From positions 2,438 through 66,437 of the IMG/VR virus record IMGVR_UViG_3300015371_000029: a stretch of 64,000 bases of DNA; one strand, 5' to 3'. Below are positions 1 to 61,212 of this stretch, piece by piece. The notes beneath the pieces were generated by a model, which worked only from the letters and a program-made list of their open reading frames with translations, was not told the origin of the DNA and did no database searches. This stretch comes from a virus. Position numbers and translations under genes: made by a program. The stretch's first letter is position 1. Each line of letters starts with the position of its first letter.

Positions 1-231
1 CGTACCAGTGTCCCTTGAATCCGGCGATGTCGTTGATGTCGTGTTGCATCCACGCACACTCGCCAACGGGATCCCACGATTCCGCCAACGTGTCATGAAC
101 TCTGACCACTCGTATGCGGTCGGGCGTCTCAGCATTGATCTCCATTCGTCGGATGACGAGGACATCGCCCGGATTCGGCTTAGGCAGATCGTCGCCGGGC
201 ATGAACGGGTTGCGAGTGTCGTCTTCGAACA

Positions 232-621
232 TCACTCGCCTCTGGGAACAGGCCGAAGAGAGATCTCGCCAACGTCATATGCCTGCTCGATGACGAATGT
301 CTCGTTGGTGCGGATCTCTCGCGCGTCGTAGGGAGCCTCGTCACCGTTGTCATGCACCACGATCACCCTCATCGTTGGTTCTGATTGGGGTTTCGTGAAC
401 GGCTGGACGAAGTTCATGCCGACGAGCGTGATCTGGAGCAGGCTTGGCGTGCCATCCTCGTTCCAGATGACTTCCAAGTATCCCTTGCGCGCGAGGCTTC
501 GCGCCGCCGAGATGACGGTCTGGTTCTCTCGATCAATTCCCTTGCTGTGTCGCAAGTCATCGAGAAGCTTCTTCTCGTATGAATTGACGTTCGGAAGCCG
601 ATACTCAGTCGGAAATTCCAT
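232..621 (-). CDS. hypothetical protein, possible winged-helix N-terminus
   Basis: ATG at 621 follows AAAAGGAGGGTGCCAT; start trimmed from the ORF track. Confidence 0.65.
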   Translation of the reverse strand: MEFPTEYRLPNVNSYEKKLLDDLRHSKGIDRENQTVISAARSLARKGYLEVIWNEDGTPSLLQITLVGMNFVQPFTKPQSEPTMRVIVVHDNGDEAPYDAREIRTNETFVIEQAYDVGEISLRPVPRGE

Positions 622-704
622 ATGGCACCCTCCTTTTGGTATGATAGCTGGATAGCTACCGGGAAGGGGCGCATCTCTGCGCCCCAACCGCTAGCTGTCG
701 AGCA

Positions 705-1130
705 TCAGACTCCTGTAGCAGACTCCTGCACCGGATCGCAGAACTCCTGAGCGATCTGGCGAAGATCCGTCAACTTGGCATAGGCCCCGTCGCCGCAAGG
801 AGCGCTGTACCTGATGTCGTAGCTCTCATCCGTGTCGCTGCGCTCCACGGTGAAGTCGCCGCGACCGTTGGCCGGCACTTCGTCCTTGGGCTCGTCGCCG
901 CCCTCCATCTTGGACAGCCGCTCGACGATGCGCTGGAACCGATTGACGCCGCAGTGCCACTCGTCGCTGCCGCTGACGGTGTCGTAGATCTGGTAGACGT
1001 CATCGTCCATGACATCTGTGCGGAAGTACAGAACGTTGTCCTTGCGGACAACGACGCAGTTCTGCACATAGTGGTCGCGAACGACATCGAACAAGCCGTA
1101 GCGGAGCACTAGCTCCTTGACCTTGATCAT
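705..1130 (-). CDS. hypothetical protein
   Basis: ATG at 1130 after AAGGAGGGTGCC RBS. Confidence 0.7.
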   Translation of the reverse strand: MIKVKELVLRYGLFDVVRDHYVQNCVVVRKDNVLYFRTDVMDDDVYQIYDTVSGSDEWHCGVNRFQRIVERLSKMEGGDEPKDEVPANGRGDFTVERSDTDESYDIRYSAPCGDGAYAKLTDLRQIAQEFCDPVQESATGV

Positions 1131-1206
1131 GGCACCCTCCTTGATAGGGCTTATATGGAGTTCGGAATTGAACTCCCCAGGGCGCTTACTCAGCGCCCCA
1201 GGCAGG

Positions 1207-1560
1207 TCACTCACGCCATTCCTCTTTCCAGAGTGGATCCACGAAGTCATCGACCATCAGAAGATCTGGCCAACAACTTTCTTGACCGGTGGTTCTCGCG
1301 GGTCCGTGACAATTGTCGCAGATCTGTTGCTCTTTCGGCGTCGTAGCCTTCATGAGCCAGAAGCCGTTGCACCAGTGGCAATCGTGCCCACGAACACGAA
1401 TGCCACTCTTCTTGAACTCCACGTAGCCACGGGCATACCGACAGGCATTTCCGTGACCAGGAATCCAAATCGAAGAGTGATCGACTCCGCATTCGACCTC
1501 GACATATGCCAGGGTCTGCATCCGCTCCGTCAACGTTTGTACGCCGACGACTCTCATCAC
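1207..1560 (-). CDS. hypothetical Cys-rich (CxxC x2) protein
   Basis: Overlaps stop of the upstream gene; CHWC and CDNC motifs. Confidence 0.6.
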   Translation of the reverse strand: MMRVVGVQTLTERMQTLAYVEVECGVDHSSIWIPGHGNACRYARGYVEFKKSGIRVRGHDCHWCNGFWLMKATTPKEQQICDNCHGPARTTGQESCWPDLLMVDDFVDPLWKEEWRE

Positions 1561-2108
1561 TTGTCCCGGCAGACCGGGCCGATGCCGAGCTGCCTAGACA
1601 GTTCGTCCGTCAACGTGCGGCCGCAAACGTAGCAGCGACCGATCTCGCGACCGAAGCGGGGGCCGGCATCGGGATCGTTCTTGATCGCTGTCAGGATGCG
1701 AGCCTTCTCGGGCTTCGCCTTGATCGGCCAACGAGCATCCGACGCCCAGACATCCACGAAGGTCGTGTACGTGCCCTTCTTGACGCTGTAGAACATCAGC
1801 GTCCCATCGGGCTTCGGAATTGCGTAACGACCGTCAGCCACTTCAGGCAGCTTACCTTCACTGTCGCTGTCCCTTGCTGCCCAGGGAAGAGGCTTGAGCG
1901 TGTCGATCACGTCACCGGCTCGCTTCTTGGGGATCTTGGCGAAGTCCACATCCGCGAGCCAGGCTCGTTGTTCCGGACTGAGCTTCGACAGATCCTTGCC
2001 GTCGCGCAGGCTGTTGAGGTAGGTCACCTGAGGTTCTGTCGCGAGCGGCCCGGTCAGTAGATGCTCCGGCACTGGCGAGCGTTCCTCCGAACGTTCTCTT
2101 GTAGTCAT
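1557..2108 (-). CDS. DUF6011-like zinc-ribbon protein
   Basis: C-terminal CYVCGRTLTDELSRQLGIGPVC; strong RBS. Confidence 0.75.
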   Translation of the reverse strand: MTTRERSEERSPVPEHLLTGPLATEPQVTYLNSLRDGKDLSKLSPEQRAWLADVDFAKIPKKRAGDVIDTLKPLPWAARDSDSEGKLPEVADGRYAIPKPDGTLMFYSVKKGTYTTFVDVWASDARWPIKAKPEKARILTAIKNDPDAGPRFGREIGRCYVCGRTLTDELSRQLGIGPVCRDK

Positions 2109-2255
2109 TGGTACCCTCCTATTGGTTGTTCGGACATAATGTCCAGACCGGGCAGCCGAAGCTGCCCGACCTGCGCATTACGCGCCGATGAAGGATGAAC
2201 TAGGAAGCTTGAGCCGTAGCCTGTACACTTCTTCGTTGGGCCTTCATCCCATGTT

Positions 2256-2535
2256 AAGCCCTGCCTAGCCGGACCGAGCCGAACCCGACCGAGGCCGGTC
2301 GTGCCGCGCCAAACATGCCGCGCCAAGCCGCGCCTAGTCAATGCAAGTCCAGCCTTGCCTTACCCCGCCGCGCCAGGACACGTTCGGCCGCACCTGGCAC
2401 GGCTTTGCCCCACCACGTCCCGCGCCGCCTTGCCATTCCTTGACAATGCCACGTCTGGACGCGCCTTGCCGTGGCCGGTCACGTCAAGCCCAGCACAGGC
2501 AATCCGCGCCTGGCCTGGACGTGCCCCGCCCCACC
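2256..2535 (-). repeat. array of 55 GGY-NN pentamers, candidate guide-like ncRNA
   Basis: Minus strand parses as GGTGG GGCGG GGCAC GTCCA GGCCA GGCGC ... GGTCG GGTTC GGCTC GGTCC GGCTA GGCAG GGCTT; 33/55 units start with exact GGY and 20 more differ by one base; two register shifts. Confidence 0.85.
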
Positions 2536-2539
2536 CAGG

Positions 2540-3262
2540 TTAGCCCTGAGCAGTTTCTTCATGCTTGATGCTCCGACGGTGATTGTCATGAGCATCTTCC
2601 TCAGTGCGGTTTCGACCCTTCTTGGCATCTCCTTCCGCAGGAGGCTTGTGATTCCTGCTGTTCGTGAGCTGCGCGAGGAATGAGCCGAATTCAGGGCGGT
2701 AGTCGCCCAGGCCATACTTCTGCGACCGCTCAACCACGAGATCGAGGAAGTCTCCATCGAGATCCTCAGGGTCATATGCGATCTCGGCTTCGAGGTTCCA
2801 TTGCTCAAACTTCGGCCGGGTGCGAGGCACTCGTCCCGATCCTGCTCCGGCGTTGGAGACCATCGCTGTGTAGCGATAGCCTTCATCCCAGAGCGACTTC
2901 TGATCGCGAGGGCCGTCATAGAGCAACGGGATCCTGTACTCGCAGACGACGAGTGATCGCTTGATCTCCTCGCCCTTGCGCCACTTCGTCGCCGCCGAAC
3001 GCAGCAACTCTTTGACGTTCTTGCTCGGAATGTACGGGCCGATCCCAGGATCGAGATAGATCCGCAGTTGCCATTCCAGTTCACGCAGACGAGCTTCGTC
3101 ATCGAGCGACTTTCTGCGCTTCTGCCCGAGCAAGTAGTACGCCCGGTACAACTCTGAGTCGCGATCAACCTCGCCGTTGCTCATGAGAAGCGGTGAAGTG
3201 CCCTTCAGGTGCAGGGTCGCTGTGGCGTAGCCCACTGGCACGATCCTTCTTAACCAAGACAT
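2540..3262 (-). CDS. stand-alone Cas7/RAMP-like RNA-binding protein (240 aa)
   Basis: N-terminal LHLKGTSPLLM strand, PYIPSKNVKELLRSAA (cf. RAMP YIPGSSxKGxLR), RPKFEQWNLEAEI, C-terminal G-rich loop GLGDYRPEFGSF; ATG at 3262 after AGGAGGGTGCCAT. Confidence 0.75.
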   Translation of the reverse strand: MSWLRRIVPVGYATATLHLKGTSPLLMSNGEVDRDSELYRAYYLLGQKRRKSLDDEARLRELEWQLRIYLDPGIGPYIPSKNVKELLRSAATKWRKGEEIKRSLVVCEYRIPLLYDGPRDQKSLWDEGYRYTAMVSNAGAGSGRVPRTRPKFEQWNLEAEIAYDPEDLDGDFLDLVVERSQKYGLGDYRPEFGSFLAQLTNSRNHKPPAEGDAKKGRNRTEEDAHDNHRRSIKHEETAQG

Positions 3263-3339
3263 ATGGCACCCTCCTATGGGTCTGATAGAACGCTGGATAG
3301 CGTCCGGCGGGGGAGCCATTTCTGGCCCCCAACCGCACG

Positions 3340-3525
3340 CTACATTGAGACCTTCTTCACCGAGATGACGAAGGCCCCTTCAGGGAAGAACGCGGTGACG
3401 CACGGTCGCAGTTCTCCATTCACGAGTTCTTGATCGAGACTCGTGAGGTCGGCTGTCGCAGTAGCCTTCTCGTTGCCGAGCAGCCTCTGCTCCAACCACA
3501 TGGCGAACTCCTCTGCCGTCATCAT
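3340..3525 (-). CDS. hypothetical protein
   Basis: Overlaps stop of the upstream gene; stop abuts a leader element. Confidence 0.6.
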   Translation of the reverse strand: MMTAEEFAMWLEQRLLGNEKATATADLTSLDQELVNGELRPCVTAFFPEGAFVISVKKVSM

Positions 3526-3980
3526 CCCCAGCGTCTCCGGAATGCCCGGAACTGGAACTCGCGACGCATCAGCGTCGCAGCATCTTCATCGACCTTTTCG
3601 TACAGGTCTCCGACGAGCGCCATGACTTCGAGTTCCTGCCCGACATTCGCCTCGGCGATGGCCCGTCTCTGGACTGACGTTGGACGACTGCGAACGAACT
3701 CGCGACCGAACTCCGTCAACTCCCAGAAGCCGGTCTTGCCGGCGATCTTGTCGATCACGCCCATCCGTCGCATGTACGCGAAGCGGATGGCTACGCAGTG
3801 ACGAGCATGCCAGGCCGTGTCTTCATCGCTCGCCGCCTTCGGCCAGATCGTCTCAGCGACTCTCTGGATGTCAACTTCTCCGTCGCGATTCTGAAGATCG
3901 TTGACGATGGCGAGTAGCTCGCGGTCACTGAAGTCCGTGATCCGTAGGCTGATGCTGCCGTTGTTACTTCCACGGGGCAT
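3522..3980 (-). CDS. probable winged-helix DNA-binding protein
   Basis: RFAYMRRMGVIDK...GFWELTEFGREF wing-like motif. Confidence 0.55.
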   Translation of the reverse strand: MPRGSNNGSISLRITDFSDRELLAIVNDLQNRDGEVDIQRVAETIWPKAASDEDTAWHARHCVAIRFAYMRRMGVIDKIAGKTGFWELTEFGREFVRSRPTSVQRRAIAEANVGQELEVMALVGDLYEKVDEDAATLMRREFQFRAFRRRWG

Positions 3981-4386
3981 AGGCGTGTCCGCCTCCTTGT
4001 ACGCCTCGGGTCGGACGGATCATCTCTTCCTCCCGCAAGTAGCGAAGGGAGGCATTGACCGTTCCATTGGCCAACCCGAGTTCGTTGATGAGTTCGCGGG
4101 CCGTCCAGTCAGGCTTTTTCGGACGGTCCTTCATGAGACCTAAGATGGTCTCAGCATGACGCTTGATCGCCGGTGTGACGACCAACGGCTGCTTGGCCCG
4201 GCTGGTCTGCTTCGACTTCGGGCCAGGCCTCGTGCCGTTCGCAGCCTTCAGGATCCGGTCGATGATCGCTTGCTCTTCCCGAAGGGAAGCGACATGCATC
4301 ATCATTTGGTCGATCTCTTCCTGAAGCTGATTGCGCTTCTCACGCAACGGTGCGATGATCTCGCTAACCGTCTTGTCTACTTTCAC
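3964..4386 (-). CDS. coiled-coil plus winged-helix DNA-binding protein
   Basis: N-terminal coiled coil; WTARELINELGLANGTVNASLRYLREEEMI HTH; RBS upstream. Confidence 0.65.
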   Translation of the reverse strand: MKVDKTVSEIIAPLREKRNQLQEEIDQMMMHVASLREEQAIIDRILKAANGTRPGPKSKQTSRAKQPLVVTPAIKRHAETILGLMKDRPKKPDWTARELINELGLANGTVNASLRYLREEEMIRPTRGVQGGGHAYAPWK

Positions 4387-4726
4387 TTGGCACCCTCCTT
4401 TTGTAGGCTATGCTAGTAGTGCATCTCTGCACCGGGAAGCGTTTCGTCTCCGAAACGCAACCGCTACAGAATTGTGTGGACGAGCAGGCAGAGAAACGAG
4501 GTAGGAGGATGCCATATTCTCAGGGCCTCGCTGTTGCTTCTACCTTAACCCTCTAGGACAATGTCCTTGGTGTGACTGGCAAAGAGCTTTGACTCATCCA
4601 CAGCTATCGTGCAACCTCCTAGTTTAGCTTAGGGCATCACCCGGCTTTCACCGTATGATACCCTCCGTCCTGCGGGCCTTATTGCCCCGTCTGGAGCGGG
4701 TTAGGCTCCAGTCGGCGCAGCAATGC

Positions 4727-5014
4727 CTAGATGCCTGCGCTTCTCTTGTTGGTGATCATCTCGCGAACCTCGACGGGATCGAGACCTGTGAACTCCCATT
4801 GGTCGTTGAGCCAGACGTAGGCTGCCTGGAAGGATTCGCCCATGTCGATCAGGCCGATGGTGTAGTCCCTGGTTTTCTCCCAGAGCCTTAGCCTCAGCCT
4901 CTCGATGTACAGATCGTACATGGTGCTCATGTGCGGGAAATCACCCTTGATGTCCCGAGCAGCCGCATCTGCTATCGCTCGTAGCAGTTGATCCTGATTC
5001 GTTGAAACGCTCAT
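4727..5014 (-). CDS. hypothetical protein
   Basis: ATGA coupling with the upstream gene. Confidence 0.6.
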   Translation of the reverse strand: MSVSTNQDQLLRAIADAAARDIKGDFPHMSTMYDLYIERLRLRLWEKTRDYTIGLIDMGESFQAAYVWLNDQWEFTGLDPVEVREMITNKRSAGI

Positions 5015-5229
5015 GAATCGAGGATCGACTTCGCATCGTTCTCCAGCCTGACGTACATGTCACGGATCTCTGACCAGTGTTCATGGTAGTGCCTGGCTGT
5101 TGCGCGTTCGTGCATCGTTGTCGCTGCGTCGATCTTCTGCCGATAGTCCTCGGCCTGTTGCGTTGCCTCCCGGCGTCGGTCGCCGATCAACCTCGCAATT
5201 CGGAGAGCCTTTTCCTCCGCAGTTTGCAA
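5011..5229 (-). CDS. hypothetical helical protein
   Basis: TTG start after AAAGGAGGGGTAC. Confidence 0.6.
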   Translation of the reverse strand: MQTAEEKALRIARLIGDRRREATQQAEDYRQKIDAATTMHERATARHYHEHWSEIRDMYVRLENDAKSILDS

Positions 5230-5345
5230 TCTGTACCCCTCCTTTGGTCGGTTGGAGCCGGTAGCTCCGGGCCAATGCCCCGAAGGGCAGAGACCCGCAG
5301 CACCCAGCCGGAGGGTATTTGGCGGGATGCGCTATGGAGGATGAC

Positions 5346-5960
5346 TTACTCCTCCACTCCTGCAATTGCCCTCAGCTGCTTCGTGATGCTGTCGTTCGAC
5401 GCGAGGTTGAACGCCTCTTCGTACTTGGCGAACGCCTCTTCCTCCAGGAAGTGCATCCTGACGTCCATGACCGGCTGTCCTTCCCTGGTCACGAGACCTT
5501 CCTGCTCAAGGATGTCCTCCCAGGTCGAATCGTCTGCCATCTCGCCGGAGATGCGCGGGTAGGGCATCCGATCCATGACCTCAGGGTCGCCGTCGTCGAT
5601 CTTCTGGAGCAGCTCCTTGGCTCGCTCGGCCTCGACGTCATTCGGCAGCCACCAGCTAGCAGCCGCCTCGCCGTCGTCCTTGCCGCGCTCGGCGGCAACG
5701 TGCTCGGCCCAGGTCTCGCTAACGAGCTGACGGATCGCTTCGACAATCGCGCCGAGATGACGCGATCCCTCGACCTTTCCGCCCTTCTTGTCGAACTGCT
5801 CGTTACAGACCCACATCGCCTTGGACGAGTTGAGCCAGTCGTACTTGACGTCGTGCGCTTCAAGGCCGTGGATGAACTCGTCGGCCATCTCTTTGATGAG
5901 CGGATCCTGCTTCAGCCTATCGACAACTTCTTGATAGTGCTCAGCTCTCATGCTGAACAA
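5346..5960 (-). CDS. hypothetical acidic protein
   Basis: 204-aa ORF with AAGGAGGGATAC RBS. Confidence 0.7.
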   Translation of the reverse strand: MFSMRAEHYQEVVDRLKQDPLIKEMADEFIHGLEAHDVKYDWLNSSKAMWVCNEQFDKKGGKVEGSRHLGAIVEAIRQLVSETWAEHVAAERGKDDGEAAASWWLPNDVEAERAKELLQKIDDGDPEVMDRMPYPRISGEMADDSTWEDILEQEGLVTREGQPVMDVRMHFLEEEAFAKYEEAFNLASNDSITKQLRAIAGVEE

Positions 5961-6044
5961 TGTATCCCTCCTTATTTTCTGGCTAAGTAGCGGGATGCTA
6001 CCGAACCGGACAGCGCATGTCTGCCCGATCCGCTAGACGCCTGC

Positions 6045-6317
6045 TTACGAAATGATCTTGATGATGTGGTACGGAAGATGGTCGCCCTGATGTCCACCGG
6101 GCTGAAGATGCTGCCAGATCTCAGCGCCGTCGTCCCGTAGCAACTCGGCGACACGGTTCAGGATCTTCGCGATCATCGCCGTCAGCTCTTCCATCGGATC
6201 ACCGCCGCCGACCGAAATCAGGCTGGCCATGTTCTGTGCGATGAACTCGACCGGCCGACCCTGCTCTGCTTCCTGCAGGATCAGCCAGGCTCCGAGCCTA
6301 TCAGCTTCTGTATACAT
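6045..6317 (-). CDS. hypothetical protein
   Basis: RBS AAGGAGGGTACCA. Confidence 0.65.
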   Translation of the reverse strand: MYTEADRLGAWLILQEAEQGRPVEFIAQNMASLISVGGGDPMEELTAMIAKILNRVAELLRDDGAEIWQHLQPGGHQGDHLPYHIIKIIS

Positions 6318-6381
6318 TGGTACCCTCCTTTTATTGGACGTGATGTCCGGCCCGCTCCGCTTCTACGGAGCGGTCCGCACC

Positions 6382-6585
6382 TCACGGTTCCAGGTGCTTC
6401 ATCCTGCCTTCCGGCCTCAGTTGCTCCTCGATCAGCATTGTCGTGAGCTTATTGCTCACCCGCTCGCTGAGTGGCGTTACCTTGAACGGGATCGTCCTGA
6501 TGAGAATGTCCATCAGGTTATCGACATCTGGCTGAGTCGCCGGAATCTCCGGTGATCCGAGAGCGATGACGAGGTAGCGGATCAT
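6382..6585 (-). CDS. hypothetical protein
   Basis: ATGA overlap with the upstream gene. Confidence 0.55.
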   Translation of the reverse strand: MIRYLVIALGSPEIPATQPDVDNLMDILIRTIPFKVTPLSERVSNKLTTMLIEEQLRPEGRMKHLEP

Positions 6586-7586
6586 GACGGCAGCTGGCCT
6601 TTCTTGTCTCCCCGAACCTGCTCGCCCTGGGGCACAATCCGGGCATCTGCTCCGGCCTTGCCGCCTTGAACGCGAGCCGACCAGTCGATGCTCCGGCCGT
6701 AGCGGTAGCTCGTTGCACGACGCTTCGCCTTGACCGGCTTACGAGCTGCCGAGCAACGCTCGCACTGGCAGTCGTCCGGATGAGGACGCAGCTCCGGGAA
6801 GTCATCGAACAACGCTTCCCGAGCCTGCTCGCGGATGTCACGAACGGCCAGGGCCATCGAGTTGCTAGACGACTCCTGCCGCTGACCTTGCATCTCATCG
6901 AACCGACGCTTGATCGTGGCGACGTAGCCGTCCATGAACGACAGCGCCCAGGTCGTTGGATGCATCCGGATCCGTTCCTCGTCCGGGTGATGCGCGGCGA
7001 GATGCCTGTCGTAGGCACGCTTCATCGCTCCCTTGTCGTTCGTCTTGACGCCGCCGGTGCCGTTCGGGATCACCCATTCGGGCCGACCGGCCCAGATGGC
7101 GATGTCCGTGTACTTCATGCCGGCGTTCTTGGCGTTGTAGACGTTGTGTCCAAGGGACAGTGACGGATCGAACTTCGGCTTCAGACGCAGTGACATCTGA
7201 AGGAAGAGGTCGGTGAAGAGCAGTTCCAGATAGCTCAAGTCCGACGGCATGCCGTACACCGCCTGCTTCAGCTCCTTGTGATTCCAGACGGAGCTGGATG
7301 TGTAGCAGCGGCAGAACGTGACGCAGTACGTCCAGAGCCAGTGGATCCTCTGCCGGACATCGTAGTCGATGCCCTTCAGCTCCGTGTACCAGGACACATC
7401 CATGTCACGGCGTTCTACGATCTTCGCCTTCTTGTCGTCATGGAGCAGAAGCAGGGCCTGGTCGATGGCATACTTCTCCATCAACTGGTCGGCCTTGGCG
7501 AGGAATGACTCGCGCTCCGCTTCGAACTCCGTGGCGTTCGCCTTGGCGATCAACCCTCGGACTCGTCTTAGGATGTCTTCAGACAT
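6582..7586 (-). CDS. DUF2786 domain-containing protein
   Basis: N-terminal ILRRVRGLIAKANATEFEAERESFLAKADQLMEKYAID. Confidence 0.8.
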   Translation of the reverse strand: MSEDILRRVRGLIAKANATEFEAERESFLAKADQLMEKYAIDQALLLLHDDKKAKIVERRDMDVSWYTELKGIDYDVRQRIHWLWTYCVTFCRCYTSSSVWNHKELKQAVYGMPSDLSYLELLFTDLFLQMSLRLKPKFDPSLSLGHNVYNAKNAGMKYTDIAIWAGRPEWVIPNGTGGVKTNDKGAMKRAYDRHLAAHHPDEERIRMHPTTWALSFMDGYVATIKRRFDEMQGQRQESSSNSMALAVRDIREQAREALFDDFPELRPHPDDCQCERCSAARKPVKAKRRATSYRYGRSIDWSARVQGGKAGADARIVPQGEQVRGDKKGQLPS

Positions 7587-7654
7587 GCGGTACCCTCCTT
7601 TAGTTGCTAGTGGACATGAAGTCCGAACCGGGCTTTCTCAGCCCGATTCGCACG

Positions 7655-7948
7655 TCATCTCTTCTTGGGTTCTTTCGGCTCGCTGCGTCGCCTCTCCATC
7701 TCCCGGTCGAACTCGGGCTGACTGCGGATGAAGTTGGCGCAAGGAGCCAGGCCGGGGCCGACACTCGCGATGACGTAATCGACGTTGCTGACCGTCGTCA
7801 TGCTGAGATAGAGCTTGCGACCCTCGATGACGATGCTGTCGTCGCCTGCCTCAAAAGCCGCGAGGATCGCGATGCGGTGATCGAACAGCTCGAACAGCTC
7901 GAATGTCTTCGGCTTCTTGTCATCCACTGGCGCTATGCGCTTTCGCAC
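7655..7948 (-). CDS. hypothetical protein
   Basis: RBS plus leader element. Confidence 0.6.
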   Translation of the reverse strand: MRKRIAPVDDKKPKTFELFELFDHRIAILAAFEAGDDSIVIEGRKLYLSMTTVSNVDYVIASVGPGLAPCANFIRSQPEFDREMERRRSEPKEPKKR

Positions 7949-8019
7949 TACGTTACACCCTCCTTCGCTATGGGCAGTATGCCCCGGAGAGGAGCTTAGT
8001 TGAAGCTCCTCAACGGCGC

Positions 8020-16054: not shown

Positions 16055-16918
16055 TTACGATGCAAAGAGGGAAAACGGGTAGTTGGAAGATGTGCAAGGC
16101 GTTCTAAGGCGGTTTCGGGGGTTCGGGGTAGCTAGGGCGGTTTAAGGGGATTCTAGGCGATGTACGGGCCTTACACAAAGCCGGAGAGGTATTATCAAGT
16201 AGGGGGTTCGGGGGTTCGGGGGTAGGGACGATAGGGGCCGTGTCGAGTTGATTCAGGATTTCGGGTAGTTGGAGGGGATTTTCGGGTCGATTGAGGGGGT
16301 TCGTAGCTTACGCTGGGGTGGGTTGTGCAGACCGGGGATTGAAAACCCCTGGTAATCGGCACTGGGTTGTGGGAAGTGGAATTGAGCGTGTCGAATTGTG
16401 TGTAGGTTTGATGGCGAAATGGGGGCATAAATGGGGGCATAAACCCGTGTTTCTGCGTTGCTTTGCGATGAAATGCCCCGTGCACAAAGTTTTTCGTGGA
16501 AAAGTTGAGTTGCAGGGGGCCGTTTTTTGTAACTTAGCTTGACCTGTTTTGCCGCCAGAAAGTTGGCCAAAGACCAGCGTAATCCGATGGTTTTTCGGCC
16601 TGAAAGTTGAAATGAGTTGATCCAGCGTAATCCGATTCTTTTTATGGGTTGAGTTGCCCGATTTTCGTGCTTACGATGCGTTGAGATGAGTTGGCTGCCC
16701 TAGTGGGCGCGGAGGGCGTGAAAATTGGGTTGCGATGGGCTTACGATGGCCTGAGATGAGATGAGTTGCCGGGGGCCGGGGTGCCGGCGAGGCCGGCATC
16801 GCAACGCAACCCATCGCGCACGCGCGCCCTGACGGGGCCAACGCATCGCATCGCGGGGGCCGCCGAGTGTAGCTTACTGCTCAACCCAATTACCCATCGT
16901 AAATCGCCCCCATCGCAA
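16055..16918. repeat. TTRCGATG motif set in mirror arrangement
   Basis: Forward at 16055, 16463, 16671, 16730, 16741; inverted (CATCGYAA) at 16797, 16895, 16911. Confidence 0.65.
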
Positions 16919-49244: not shown

Positions 49245-50498
49245 ATGCTAACCAGTTCGCGCTTCGCGGTTCAATATCCGCAGCTGACCGATTCTCCGGA
49301 TGTCCCGCGTGATCTAACATCAATCGTGACGCAGGGGATCGAACGTGCCATCTTGCACGGCGGCTCGGGAACGCTCGCTGCAAGGCCAACCAGCTCGCCT
49401 GGAACTCCCGGCATCGTCGGGCGGCTCTACGCAGCAACGGATCAAACGCCGCCTCGTCTCTTCTACGATCACGGCACCGGCTGGTTCGATGTCGGAGCGT
49501 TGATCGCACTCTCGGTCACGACAGGAATCATCGCAGACGGCGCAGTAACGGCCGCCAAGATGGCTACCGATACGATCACGGCGACGCAAATTGCTCCCGA
49601 TGCAGTCGGAACCAGCGAGATCGCTGCCGGCGCTGTTGGGAATGCGGAGCTAGCAGCAAGTTCTGTTGCGGCCGGAAACATGCAAACGAACTCGGTGCCT
49701 ACTGCCGCGATCCAAGCAAACGCGGTGAACTTCTCCAAGATCGCCTCGGACGTTCCTGTCGTCCCGGTTGGAGCGGTGATGGACTGGCCTTGGCATCACA
49801 ACCAGCTCCCGACCTGGGCCCTGCTGCCGTACGGGCAGTTGCTGACACAGGCTGCCTACCCGGCTATGCAGATTCTGGCCGATGCAGCGAGCCGTCCCTA
49901 TGGCGGCGTGGCCGGAACGAGCTTCAATATGCCGGATATGCGCGGTCGCTCCGCTGCCGGCAGGGACGACATGGGAGGAACTGTCGCGGGTCGCGTCACC
50001 GTCGCGATCTCTGGAATCAATGGAACGACTCTCGGATCCGCCGGTGGCACCGAAGGCGTTACGCTGTCAACGGCTCAGATCCCCGCTCACAATCACACCC
50101 AGACGGCGCATGGCCATACCGTCAATGCTCACTCGCATACGGTAAATGCTCACTCGCACACGGTGAACGCTCACTCTCATGGCATCTCGCAAAACCAGCA
50201 CTACCACGGAACGTCCCATACCTACTGGACGGGCGATCCGGGCGGCGAGCTTGGAGCAGTGGGTGCCGTTCAGCCTGGTGGCTCGACGGTTTACGGGTCG
50301 CAGGCAATCACCGGAGCACTCGCAGACGTTTCGGTCAACAATGCATCGCCGGGAACCGATGCTCAATCACCGGGAACCACTACGACAGCTCCGGGCACCG
50401 ACTCTCAAGCTCCCACGATTCAGAACACGGGCGGGGATGGTGCGCACCCCAACGTTCAGCCGACCATCGTTGTCAACAAGCTGATGAGAGTTCTCTAA
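49245..50498 (+). CDS. tail fibre with collar domain and HxH motifs
   Basis: VPVGAVMDW, FNMPDMRGR, IPAHNH, HPNVQPTIVVN; 21-nt tandem repeat encoding TVNAHSH. Confidence 0.8.
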   Translation: MLTSSRFAVQYPQLTDSPDVPRDLTSIVTQGIERAILHGGSGTLAARPTSSPGTPGIVGRLYAATDQTPPRLFYDHGTGWFDVGALIALSVTTGIIADGAVTAAKMATDTITATQIAPDAVGTSEIAAGAVGNAELAASSVAAGNMQTNSVPTAAIQANAVNFSKIASDVPVVPVGAVMDWPWHHNQLPTWALLPYGQLLTQAAYPAMQILADAASRPYGGVAGTSFNMPDMRGRSAAGRDDMGGTVAGRVTVAISGINGTTLGSAGGTEGVTLSTAQIPAHNHTQTAHGHTVNAHSHTVNAHSHTVNAHSHGISQNQHYHGTSHTYWTGDPGGELGAVGAVQPGGSTVYGSQAITGALADVSVNNASPGTDAQSPGTTTTAPGTDSQAPTIQNTGGDGAHPNVQPTIVVNKLMRVL

Positions 50499-58806: not shown

Positions 58807-59332
58807 TGTCGTACCCAACCTCCCCTGGTTCGGTGCCGTAGAACGGCATCCCCTGCATTCGCTTCTGGAAGACCATGCAGATTCTAGCCGTATGGTGCGG
58901 ACGCAGTACGACCACGATCCGCAGCGTGTGGTTGCAGCGTGGCGGACGGCCTGGCTCCTTATCGCCGTACACCACGAGCCAGCCACCTTCCCTCAGAACT
59001 CGCACCGCCTCAGTGGTGTACTGCCCTTTGTTGAGCTTTGGGGTGCCATAGAGCAGCTCGGATTGAGCGTCGCTGTAGGGAGGGTCGAGGATGACGCAGT
59101 CGTAGGAGTCGTCTTCGAATGGCAAGTCATGGGCGTCCGCAACGATGTCCGCCCCAACGTCTTCGCGCAGGTCCATAATCTTCCCATAGTCAGCCATGCC
59201 TCCAAATGGTTGTAGAACCTCTTGTGGATATCCCAAGAGCTTGATCAGGTTGTCTTCGAAGTGGAGCGGGAACGCCCCTTTGTACTTCGACTTTGCCACA
59301 CGAGGTAGCGTCCAGACAATTGTGCTAATCAT
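58793..59332 (-). CDS. small SAM-dependent amino-methyltransferase-like protein
   Basis: QPFGG, ADAHDLPF, VILDPPY motif. Confidence 0.65.
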   Translation of the reverse strand: MISTIVWTLPRVAKSKYKGAFPLHFEDNLIKLLGYPQEVLQPFGGMADYGKIMDLREDVGADIVADAHDLPFEDDSYDCVILDPPYSDAQSELLYGTPKLNKGQYTTEAVRVLREGGWLVVYGDKEPGRPPRCNHTLRIVVVLRPHHTARICMVFQKRMQGMPFYGTEPGEVGYDNGAT

Positions 59333-59843
59333 GGTATTGTTCAGCCCTTCGCTTGACCTCTGCATTTAGGTGGGCATTGTGGCAGAAGTGCATCAGGTCG
59401 TTGATGTCCTCGGTGATGAGATCGAACATCCCGTACATCAGCTCTGGCTGGAGTGGCTCCGTCACGTACAGGGCGACCGGCTTGCCATGCCCTACTGCCC
59501 ACCCTGCCTCTAGGTGCGCGTTCTTGCCGCAGGGCAGAAGCAGCACAACGGCGTCGGCTGCCTCCAGGTGCGACATGTCGCGAAGGAACCCTGCCTGCGC
59601 ACGCTTATGCCGGAGAGCATTCGCGAAGACCCAGCCCGGTATGGGGTCTGTCCAGTGACTGACCTTCAGGTCGGCTACAGACTTCTCCTCGCCGTTGATA
59701 AAGAAGGTCATCGTATTGAATACATCCGACCAGTGGAAGCCTTCTTCATCCCGCCAGTTGTAGTACGGCAACGCCCACTGCTCTAGGCAGTCGAGGATGC
59801 CTTCGTAGCGAGGGTTCCTCCAGCTGCTAGCGACGTAGATCAT
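59325..59843 (-). CDS. nucleoside 2-deoxyribosyltransferase-like protein
   Basis: IYVASSWRN...D..ADAVVLLLPCGKNAHLEAGWAVG. Confidence 0.75.
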   Translation of the reverse strand: MIYVASSWRNPRYEGILDCLEQWALPYYNWRDEEGFHWSDVFNTMTFFINGEEKSVADLKVSHWTDPIPGWVFANALRHKRAQAGFLRDMSHLEAADAVVLLLPCGKNAHLEAGWAVGHGKPVALYVTEPLQPELMYGMFDLITEDINDLMHFCHNAHLNAEVKRRAEQYHD

Positions 59844-60151
59844 GGTAGCTCACCTGCAACTTCGTACATGATCTCTAGACCGCACATCGCGGCGACGAGA
59901 TGTTCGCAACGAGCACCGGCGCTCCGCTCCCAGCCCTCTAGCATGTAGGCCGCGTCGCAGTCGAGCAGCATACCGATGTCTGCCTTCATGTACTCTTCGT
60001 AGGTCGGCTCTCCTGACTTCTTCAGGATCACGACCTCGCAGGGGTTGACCGGGGTGTAGCCGTTCCGAGCGAGTAGTTCGCAGGCTCGATCAAAGTGAAC
60101 CAGATACTCGGGATAGTCCTTGATGCGTCCGCTGACGTAGATCCGCTTCAT
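59840..60151 (-). CDS. DUF4406 (NDT-like) protein
   Basis: IYVSG..F..GYTPVNP..YMKADIGMLLDCD..GWERSAGARCE. Confidence 0.8.
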   Translation of the reverse strand: MKRIYVSGRIKDYPEYLVHFDRACELLARNGYTPVNPCEVVILKKSGEPTYEEYMKADIGMLLDCDAAYMLEGWERSAGARCEHLVAAMCGLEIMYEVAGELP

Positions 60152-61212
60152 GACGGCCGATCCTCGTCAGTCGTCGTGATGCCGGCCCAGGGGTTCGCGA
60201 GCCATTCCTGGGGCTGAATGCCGTCGAGCATTTCTCCGTCCGGCATGCAGAACGTGCCATCCTCCCAATCGTGGCCGTCCCACTTATCGGGAGGCACGCC
60301 CATTGCCGCGAGAGAATTGACGCGATGACGGATTGAACAACCCCGGTCGAGTTTCCCCATGAAGACGCACTTCCCGGCCTGGTAGCAGACCGGCGTAAAC
60401 GTTTGCGGCAGAGGCTGAGAAACTCTCGCCCACTGCCAAGCGCCGTCGCGCGGGTGGATGCCCAAGGAATCACTCGGGTGCCAATAGGTGCTAACGTGGC
60501 TACGGATCACCTTGACAATCCCGATAGCGACCGAGCGCCATTCGAACTGCGCCTGGGTGCAGAGCCGCTTCCCCATCTCGGTGACGAGGTTGCGAAAGTT
60601 CGTCTTGTAGTTCAGTCGCGTCGTCACGCAATGAGGCAGAAGTCCACGAGCATCCTCGGCAGGAACGCCCATACCGATCAGAGTCTCGTATGCCTGCTCG
60701 GCCTGCTCCAAGCCTTCCAAGAACTTCACGAGCGCATCAGCATCACTCGCGATTGTGGGCGGAATCGCTGCTTCCTGGGCGATGCCACGCTTGACAGCGA
60801 AGCGAAGCGACTCCTGCGCATAGACGGCAGTACGCTGCCTCACCATCTGGTGGGTGAAGGCGCGGGTGACGCCCTCGATGAAGAAGTGGAGATCGATGAA
60901 CTCCCAGGCTGCCTTCAGGTGCGTCCGGAGGGATTCCTCCCAATACTCCACGCGCTCTTCATCCGTGATGTGGCTGAGATCGTAGGTCGGCTTGCCGGCA
61001 TACATCCGGAAGGCCGAAGCGACGACGCCGAGCGGATCCGGTGTCGCACTGAGAAGGAAGACCTGTGGAGTCACGCGCGACTTAGCCTCATCCCTCTTCA
61101 TCGGCGTAGCCTCGAACATCGCTGCGTCGCCGTAATGGATGAGATCCTTGGATTGTTCGTGATCCTGGCGATCAAGGCGGTCGAATGTGTCCTGTTCGCG
61201 TTCGGCGCTCAT
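60148..61212 (-). CDS. thyX: FAD-dependent thymidylate synthase ThyX-like
   Basis: EGVTRAFTHQMVRQR...QESLR; EDARGLLP; RLCTQAQFEWR. Confidence 0.8.
   Translation of the reverse strand: MSAEREQDTFDRLDRQDHEQSKDLIHYGDAAMFEATPMKRDEAKSRVTPQVFLLSATPDPLGVVASAFRMYAGKPTYDLSHITDEERVEYWEESLRTHLKAAWEFIDLHFFIEGVTRAFTHQMVRQRTAVYAQESLRFAVKRGIAQEAAIPPTIASDADALVKFLEGLEQAEQAYETLIGMGVPAEDARGLLPHCVTTRLNYKTNFRNLVTEMGKRLCTQAQFEWRSVAIGIVKVIRSHVSTYWHPSDSLGIHPRDGAWQWARVSQPLPQTFTPVCYQAGKCVFMGKLDRGCSIRHRVNSLAAMGVPPDKWDGHDWEDGTFCMPDGEMLDGIQPQEWLANPWAGITTTDEDRPS

Follow-up and report, generated by a model that had tools for sequence, protein, structure and literature searches.

A probable VIPR locus with a long pentamer array and no vap gene in an uncultured soil phage

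VIPR (Viral Interference Programmable Repeat) systems are RNA-guided DNA binders, first described in bioRxiv preprints in April 2026 (10.64898/2026.04.26.720920). Here we describe a locus which is very probably a genuine VIPR system working as the rest of the family does, in the virus record IMGVR_UViG_3300015371_000029 of IMG/VR. The record is 66,437 bp long with a completeness rating of 100%, and the stretch that was analysed, called the window in the following, comprises its bases 2438-66437 (64,000 nt). The locus lies on the minus strand and consists of a gene for a 240-aa Cas7-like RAMP protein, vipr, followed directly by a 280-nt array of GGY-NN pentamers.

According to the parts of the April 2026 preprint available to us, Vipr is a single-domain RAMP protein found chiefly in phages and prophages, and its vrRNAs are made of 9-16 YNNGG repeats, whose NN bases pair with double-stranded DNA with a one-nucleotide skip and silence the transcription of competing phages and satellites (10.64898/2026.04.26.720920). 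The same parts distinguish seven VIPR types (I-VII), list six vap genes as accessories and describe various array architectures, among them ribozyme-interspersed arrays and "staggered arrays with overlapping vrRNAs", and report confirmation by small RNA sequencing for just the ribozyme-interspersed and the single-vrRNA architectures (10.64898/2026.04.26.720920). Two genes are "typically" present there, yet some Viprs stand alone, and a vap gene is not defining for all types; a cut-off of 80% NN match is used for natural targets, and no self-targets are reported in the published systems (10.64898/2026.04.26.720920). In the SUSP1 structure, as far as it is covered by the accessible portion of its report, one protomer is bound per repeat and GGY is contacted by R138, D177, W178, R179, H17, E71 and M72, while alanine mutants of R138 or D177 abolished silencing (10.64898/2026.04.26.720927). 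Finally, satellite decoy vrRNAs and orphan vrRNAs are described in the available part of a later preprint (10.64898/2026.10.15.759431).

The vipr gene, its pentamer array and their relatives

The core of the locus is made up of the following features, given in window coordinates.

2540..3262, minus strand: vipr gene, 240 aa, single-domain Cas7-like RAMP; ATG at 3262, stop at 2542-2540
2446..2535, minus strand: vrRNA array block 1, 18 GGYNN units in one register, starting 4 nt past the vipr stop
2315..2444, minus strand: vrRNA array block 2, 26 units in register +1 (extra T at 2445)
2256..2315, minus strand: vrRNA array block 3, 12 units (11 if counted from 2310) in register -1, sharing one base with block 2

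The original prediction, made from the DNA letters, had described a 240-aa RAMP-like protein with the motif GTSPLLM and two further motifs. The open reading frame (ORF) at 2540-3262 and all three motifs, GTSPLLM, PYIPSKNVKELLRSAA and GLGDYRPEFGSF, are indeed present, and a GGAGG ribosome-binding motif stands immediately 5′ of the ATG. The core of the protein covers approximately residues 10-205, with the G-loop GLGDYRPEFG at 184-193, and the AlphaFold2 model (pLDDT 84.7, pTM 0.77) has a predicted Cas7-like fold, as had been anticipated for a RAMP protein. The core is followed by a C-terminal extension of ~40 aa, which carries a conserved K...AH motif and a helix predicted at 219-237 with low confidence. 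This extension is restricted to the closest clade: among the best 150 cluster representatives, five align through profile positions 238-239.

No Pfam family, Cas7 families included, was found for the 240-aa protein, and its PHROG match is phrog_4652 (E 2.8e-37), a family of unknown function. A word-indexed search returned 371 relatives at E <= 0.001. When 1.84 billion cluster representatives were searched exhaustively with a profile, 2567 relatives were found at the same threshold and 1584 at E <= 1e-10. When a profile of 30 sequences (A1; the 240-aa protein and 29 relatives) was compared with the PDB, the single match at E <= 1 was chain 36pp_D, "SUSP1 Vipr protein" (E 1e-23; query 21-207, chain 5-192 of 202). 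The original prediction had likened the locus to VIPR systems, and both the existence of the preprints and this match bear the comparison out. Mapped by hand from the HMMER alignment, R138, D177, W178 and R179 of SUSP1 correspond to R149, D187, Y188 and R189, the aromatic residue being retained; R149, D187 and R189 are invariant in profile A1 and Y188 is at least 90% conserved. Judged by its sequence, the 240-aa protein is a member of the Vipr family.

The tract behind the gene starts at 2535, on the same strand and 4 nt past the stop codon, just where it had been predicted. It was parsed by dynamic programming, with a reward for GGY at unit positions 1-3 and a penalty for register shifts, which gave 56 units over 280 nt (2535-2256, minus strand); of these, 33 have an exact GGY, 21 are one-off and 2 deviate further. 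The earlier count of 33 exact units is reproduced, while its totals of 55 pentamers and 20 one-off units are replaced by those of the parse. Similarly, the tract had been rightly recognised as an array, but its two register shifts had gone unmentioned: unit 18 is followed by one surplus base (2445), and unit 44 overlaps its successor by one base (2315). A single fixed frame keeps just the first 18 and the last 11 units in phase. Three runs of at least four exact units are present in the array, and block 3, which holds the longest one (7 units), is the best-defined candidate guide.

Of the 56 units, 51 begin with G, 39 have G at position 2 and 53 have C or T at position 3, while the last two positions vary freely, as first noted, with near-uniform counts (G17/A13/C11/T15 at position 4 and G16/C14/A12/T14 at position 5). 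The 5-nt periodicity of G peaks at the array in the whole 64-kb window, on either strand (power 3.66; window median 0.14, 99.9th percentile 1.98). The array scores 26, whereas 1000 dinucleotide-preserving shuffles of the intergenic stretch average 2.3 and never exceed 6.0, and nowhere else on either strand of the whole 66,437-bp genome is a score of 5 reached. Tandem Repeats Finder registers merely a 19-nt fragment of the array and is nearly blind to it because the units have three of five positions in common; this weak signal argues against a recent slippage repeat. Contigs from four public DNA runs, whose independence from the source sample is uncertain, match the gene and the array in part with 0 differences, and these runs therefore yield no array variants.

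The pairing of gene and array extends well beyond this phage. By tblastn, 130 phage records match, including Felixounavirus, Gordonia and Mycobacterium phages, and the homologue of phage wV8 is 26% identical by BLASTP (E 6e-19). Arrays beside homologous genes had been proposed as a check, and they were found in each set of loci inspected. Three IMG/VR loci with 53-70% identical proteins all carry same-strand arrays (48 and 131 units), 28-54 nt past the end of the protein match. Same-strand GGYNN runs also stand beside the gene in Gordonia phage Trine, Mycobacterium phage LittleE, Pseudomonas phage LESphi2 and Escherichia phage wV8 (4/4; four of the 130 records), the wV8 arrays being placed upstream and downstream of a two-gene unit, like the published SUSP1 layout. 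A profile-seeded scan added 5 genome loci, from four Solirubrobacterales-type metagenome-assembled genomes (MAGs) and one MAG labelled Elusimicrobia, and 16 viral loci. All 21 (~16 distinct sequences) have at least one same-strand array scoring at least 6, whereas opposite-strand signals of that score occur at 3 of the 21 (L012, L013 and L028).

The arrays of relatives have 15-131 units in register blocks of 2 to 69 units, with many +/-1 shifts. At one extreme, L012 has 69 units and zero register shifts; L016 and L017 have arrays as degenerate as the array described here. The informative positions were compared with those of six relatives whose vipr genes are 61-70% identical in nucleotides. 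Among the sequences at hand there was no very close relative with a different array: L009-L011 are near-identical to one another, and the four public runs contain the very sequence described here. Best-offset NN identity is 0.36-0.47, with shuffled-unit means of 0.40-0.44. Since the likeness of the NN bases to those of relatives is no higher than for shuffled unit orders, the scaffold has been retained while the NN bases have turned over completely.

Several features of individual relatives are recorded here in their own right. At ~4800-5000 of L017, a tail-like element of ~55 nt is repeated twice after runs of GGCAT units, and is absent from the array of the window. In L013, a Solirubrobacteraceae MAG, the same-strand array of 15 units is followed, just past its end, by another one of 30 units (26 exact; 4882-5031) on the strand opposite to vipr, so that the two arrays converge. 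In L019 (= L003), at 1300-6021, the vipr-array cassette is located between ORFs which, by eye, are apparently those of the terminase large subunit and the portal, whereas the cassette of the window is surrounded by early genes; apparently, the cassette moves from one genomic context to another. In phage Trine (L004), the annotated coding sequence of gene 40 (3079-3882) overlaps GGYNN runs at 3122-3290, and its start is probably annotated too far upstream, reading through guide-RNA DNA.

Proposed action, target searches and alternative explanations

By homology to the published systems, the locus would act as follows. The 280-nt GGY-NN array, either sharing the vipr transcript or standing directly behind the gene, would encode one or several vrRNAs. 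Vipr protomers would polymerise along the RNA, one per pentamer as in SUSP1, and each GGY would be flipped out and held by the thumb residue R149 and the G-loop residues D187, Y188 and R189, as suggested by the cryo-electron microscopy structure of SUSP1. The displayed NN bases would pair with double-stranded DNA matching NN-x-NN-x, with one base skipped per unit, and the bound complex would block transcription of a competing phage, satellite or prophage. By analogy with the rest of the family, the array of this locus would be transcribed and cut into single guides, possibly at the two register shifts, Vipr filaments would form and bind DNA, and the target would be such a competitor.

Targets were sought on both strands as the NN bases joined by one wildcard. 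Against the phage's own genome, whole blocks reach an NN match of 52-77% at best, below the 80% cut-off, and 9-unit sub-guides do not differ from the shuffled control; this absence of self-targets agrees with what the accessible part of the April 2026 preprint reports for its systems (10.64898/2026.04.26.720920). Target matches in 28 fetched loci (207,906 bases) were not above control. The exact block 3 pattern and the exact 12-unit block 2 pattern gave 0 matches each in the IMG/VR viral contigs, and the 12-unit pattern with up to 3 mismatches gave 0 matches in 401 genomes of the order to which the Solirubrobacterales MAG G001 and the closest prophage-like copies belong. The 11-unit NNx pattern of block 3 has one exact match (22/22), on the metagenome contig L030. 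The contig ends 45 nt from this site, and the 68-codon ORF downstream of the site has neither a Pfam family nor a homologue. About 0.06-0.08 such matches are expected by chance per 1e12 positions (uniform or GC-adjusted), in a collection whose size is not known, and no match to the remaining array blocks was found on the same contig. This site is treated as a weak lead and is not accepted as a target.

A number of observations weigh against a working VIPR system and have to be set beside the evidence above. The first is that no convincing natural target was found in these searches, the lone exact match being near chance expectation. Second, the array is imperfect: exact GGY makes up 33 of the 56 units (59%), which is low within the span of 58-93% seen in ten relatives, and the longest exact in-phase run, 7 units, is shorter than the 9-16 repeats per vrRNA given in the accessible text of the April 2026 preprint (10.64898/2026.04.26.720920). 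Its RNA is also predicted to fold on itself beyond shuffles (z -3.4), and such folding could compete with the loading of Vipr. Third, in the hand-read HMMER alignment, the G1/Y3 contacts H17 and E71/M72 of SUSP1 are replaced by S28 and K81/N82. Lastly, partners known from other systems are missing. No conserved 3′ tail sequence was found in relatives, and the vap gene is absent, as no ORF within 9 kb around vipr recurs beside vipr in 20 comparison loci; a vap-like cluster is confined to the distant loci L004, L005, L024, L027 and L028.

The vap-less clade might constitute a separate, hitherto undescribed working mode of VIPR, in which a long transcript lacking a conserved tail would be split into guide filaments by the +/-1 shifts, without cleavage at tails or ribozymes, and the conserved C-terminal extension would take the role of Vap. 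The shifts would divide filaments because a strict 5-nt step cannot propagate across a step of 4 or 6 nt, so that a number of separate guides would be lined up on a single RNA, like beads on a string. We consider such a separate mode rather unlikely.

The main rival to a functional system is a decaying or repurposed one, in which vipr is intact and the degenerate array provides no working guides or serves as a decoy or sponge for the Vipr of another phage, comparable to solo vrRNAs. The proportion of exact units and the short longest run mentioned above would fit decay, as would the predicted internal hairpins, which span degenerate units, and decoy and orphan vrRNAs do exist according to the available part of the October 2026 preprint (10.64898/2026.10.15.759431). 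However, the vipr ORF is full length and keeps every invariant residue, conservation is still 91% at unit position 1 and 95% at position 3, runs of at least four exact units persist in three places, and the arrays of L016 and L017 are equally degenerate. Weighing both sides, we hold decay or a decoy role to be improbable, and a genuine VIPR system remains the favoured explanation.

It is more doubtful still that the protein acts in the manner of the Cas7 proteins of CRISPR types III and VII, binding the pentamer RNA in order to recognise or cut RNA instead of silencing DNA. Its predicted fold does resemble theirs, but its sequence identity to type III and type VII Cas7 chains is 9-16%, against an E-value of 1e-23 to the DNA-binding Vipr of SUSP1. 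The claim that CRISPR repeats and cas genes are missing from the window also held: a repeat search of the sequence found no CRISPR-like array, the sole direct repeats being one 21-nt (x3) and one 22-nt (x2) family away from the locus, none of 63 ORFs matched a PADLOC defence or Cas family, Pfam gave no such match, and Cas10, Cas11, Cas14 or further cas genes were not found in the genome. Moreover, the family assays in the accessible part of the April 2026 preprint show binding of double-stranded DNA and transcriptional repression (10.64898/2026.04.26.720920). RNA targeting is hence very improbable.

The weakest alternative, a non-guide tract such as a G-rich structured 3′ untranslated region, a G-quadruplex region or a spurious coding repeat beside a RAMP-like gene, can point to the GG every 5 nt, which could form G-quadruplexes, to the ORFs that can be drawn across the tract and to its stable folding, but it is next to negligible given that the gene and array are paired in every relative examined, down to 26% identity and with unrelated NN bases, that two register shifts break any reading frame, and that positions 4 and 5 are uniform, as expected for information-bearing guide positions.

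Flanking stem-loops and the phage genome

Stable stem-loops bracket the vipr-array unit, one on its 5′ side and two on its 3′ side.

3263..3345, minus strand: intergenic leader of vipr, with a strong stem-loop right past the stop of the upstream ORF (3340-3525), then GGAGG before the ATG at 3262
2187..2248, minus strand: stem-loop directly 3′ of the array, candidate vrRNA 3′ tail or part of a terminator
2132..2186, minus strand: GC-rich stem-loop with a UUCG loop and without a U-tract, terminator-like end of the vipr-array unit, before the ribosome-binding site and ATG (2108) of the next gene

The leader folds at -42 kcal/mol (z -3.9) and the stretch 2262-2125 at -57.8 kcal/mol (z -4.4); in either case, 0 of 200 shuffles were as stable. 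A terminator pattern scan in which a T-run is obligatory did not list the hairpin at 2132-2186 and gave no minus-strand site near the locus, and a scan for sigma-70-type promoters likewise gave no minus-strand site there. The arrays of the relatives L012, L018 and L003/L019 finish in a hairpin followed by a T-rich tract. At gathering thresholds, Rfam matched nothing in the window, hence no hammerhead or further known RNA was found beside the array.

The gene directly downstream of the array (1557-2108, minus strand) has a terminal DUF6011 motif (Pfam E 5e-14) and matches phrog_636. It is probably not an accessory gene, since relatives do not keep it beside vipr.

The source is an uncultured, myovirus-like phage from soil. 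Its PHROG matches include terminase, portal, protease, scaffold, sheath, tube, tape-measure, tail-fibre, endolysin and DnaE-like polymerase genes as well as genes of nucleotide metabolism. The nearest cultured phages by polymerase and portal (42-45% identity) infect Streptomyces, Mycobacterium and Gordonia, and the host of this high-GC phage is therefore probably actinobacterial, as judged from these proteins. No match was obtained by megablast of window positions 1-8000 against the phage collection.

Three further observations concern other parts of the genome. At 16574-16643, the two copies of the 22-nt direct repeat stand 48 nt apart, between leftward genes (last ORF end at 16570) and rightward genes (first ORF start at 16766), and could be operator or promoter elements of a divergent early region. 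The 21-nt tandem repeat (50115-50177; three copies, 76-100% identical) is located within an ORF (49245-50498) with matches to tail and tail-fibre PHROGs, and corresponds to a 7-aa repeat in the tail protein. On the minus strand, three adjacent genes at 59325-61212 match nucleoside deoxyribosyltransferase, nucleoside 2-deoxyribosyltransferase/MazG-like and thymidylate-synthase-like PHROGs and adjoin the DnaE-like polymerase and an HNH endonuclease; this trio may form a DNA base-modification or nucleotide-salvage module.

Comparison with known systems

The Cas7 backbone subunits of CRISPR systems (Csm3, Cmr4, type VII Cas7 and the Cas7-11 domains) come with cas genes and CRISPR repeats, whereas the locus described here has neither. 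The CRISPR Cas7 subunits have a 6-nt step with 5 informative bases, whereas VIPR, in the portions of the preprints available, has a 5-nt step with 2 informative bases. The locus is not a class 1 CRISPR-Cas system: a Pfam Cas7 family, cas genes and a repeat-spacer array were all sought and not found.

The closest relatives in cultured phages are gp41 of Gordonia phage Trine, gp34 of Mycobacterium phage LittleE and gp43 of Mycobacterium phage prophiBWHA-1, with 35-40% identity and annotated as hypothetical proteins only. The Trine and LittleE homologues share with this locus the same-strand GGYNN arrays beside the gene. They differ in that the actinophage proteins have ~190-200 aa without the C-terminal extension and are followed by a conserved second gene, the vap-like cluster.

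Among the array architectures, the "staggered" type is the nearest. As far as it is described in the legend of fig. S18 of the April 2026 preprint, it shares a long continuous array and register blocks meeting in a one-base overlap, as occurs here at 2315, while the junction at 2445 consists of a +1 insertion and not an overlap.

The best described counterpart is the type II VIPR of SUSP1 (Vipr, vap1 and vrRNAs; PDB 36pp), whose Vipr is homologous to the protein described here by profile (E 1e-23). The two have the same single-RRM Cas7-like fold with a G-loop, predicted in our case, and conservation extends to the thumb Arg and, within the G-loop, to Asp, the aromatic residue and Arg. Both are phage-encoded, lack a CRISPR array and have GGY-NN pentamers on the same strand beside the gene. 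The differences are as follows. Identity to the Felixounavirus-type Vipr is about 26%; the SUSP1 chain has 202 residues, against 240 aa with the C-terminal extension; H17 and E71/M72 stand where S28 and K81/N82 are found here; a vap gene is present there and none here; and the phage described here is of high GC, with a probably actinobacterial host. In the accessible parts of its description, SUSP1 has separate vrRNAs of ~100 nt with conserved pseudoknotted tails up- and downstream, compared with the single continuous array of 280 nt past the stop codon. The register blocks of this array have 18, 26 and 12 units, and the stable stem-loop past it has no tail sequence common to relatives; a vrRNA of 9-16 repeats with a conserved structured tail may define type II only.

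Because VIPR was published in 2026, the locus adds to a known family and is not a new kind of system, and the known VIPR mechanism is unchanged by it. What it contributes is a complete example from an uncultured, high-GC soil phage and, together with its relatives, the documentation of a sub-clade by three features: the lack of an accessory gene, the C-terminal extension of Vipr, and arrays of 15-131 units right past the stop codon. In the portions available, the preprints do not settle how long arrays that lack a conserved tail and a vap partner become guides. Loci of ~1.1 kb such as this one would be convenient material for this question of guide production, and for minimal programmable repressors in actinobacteria.

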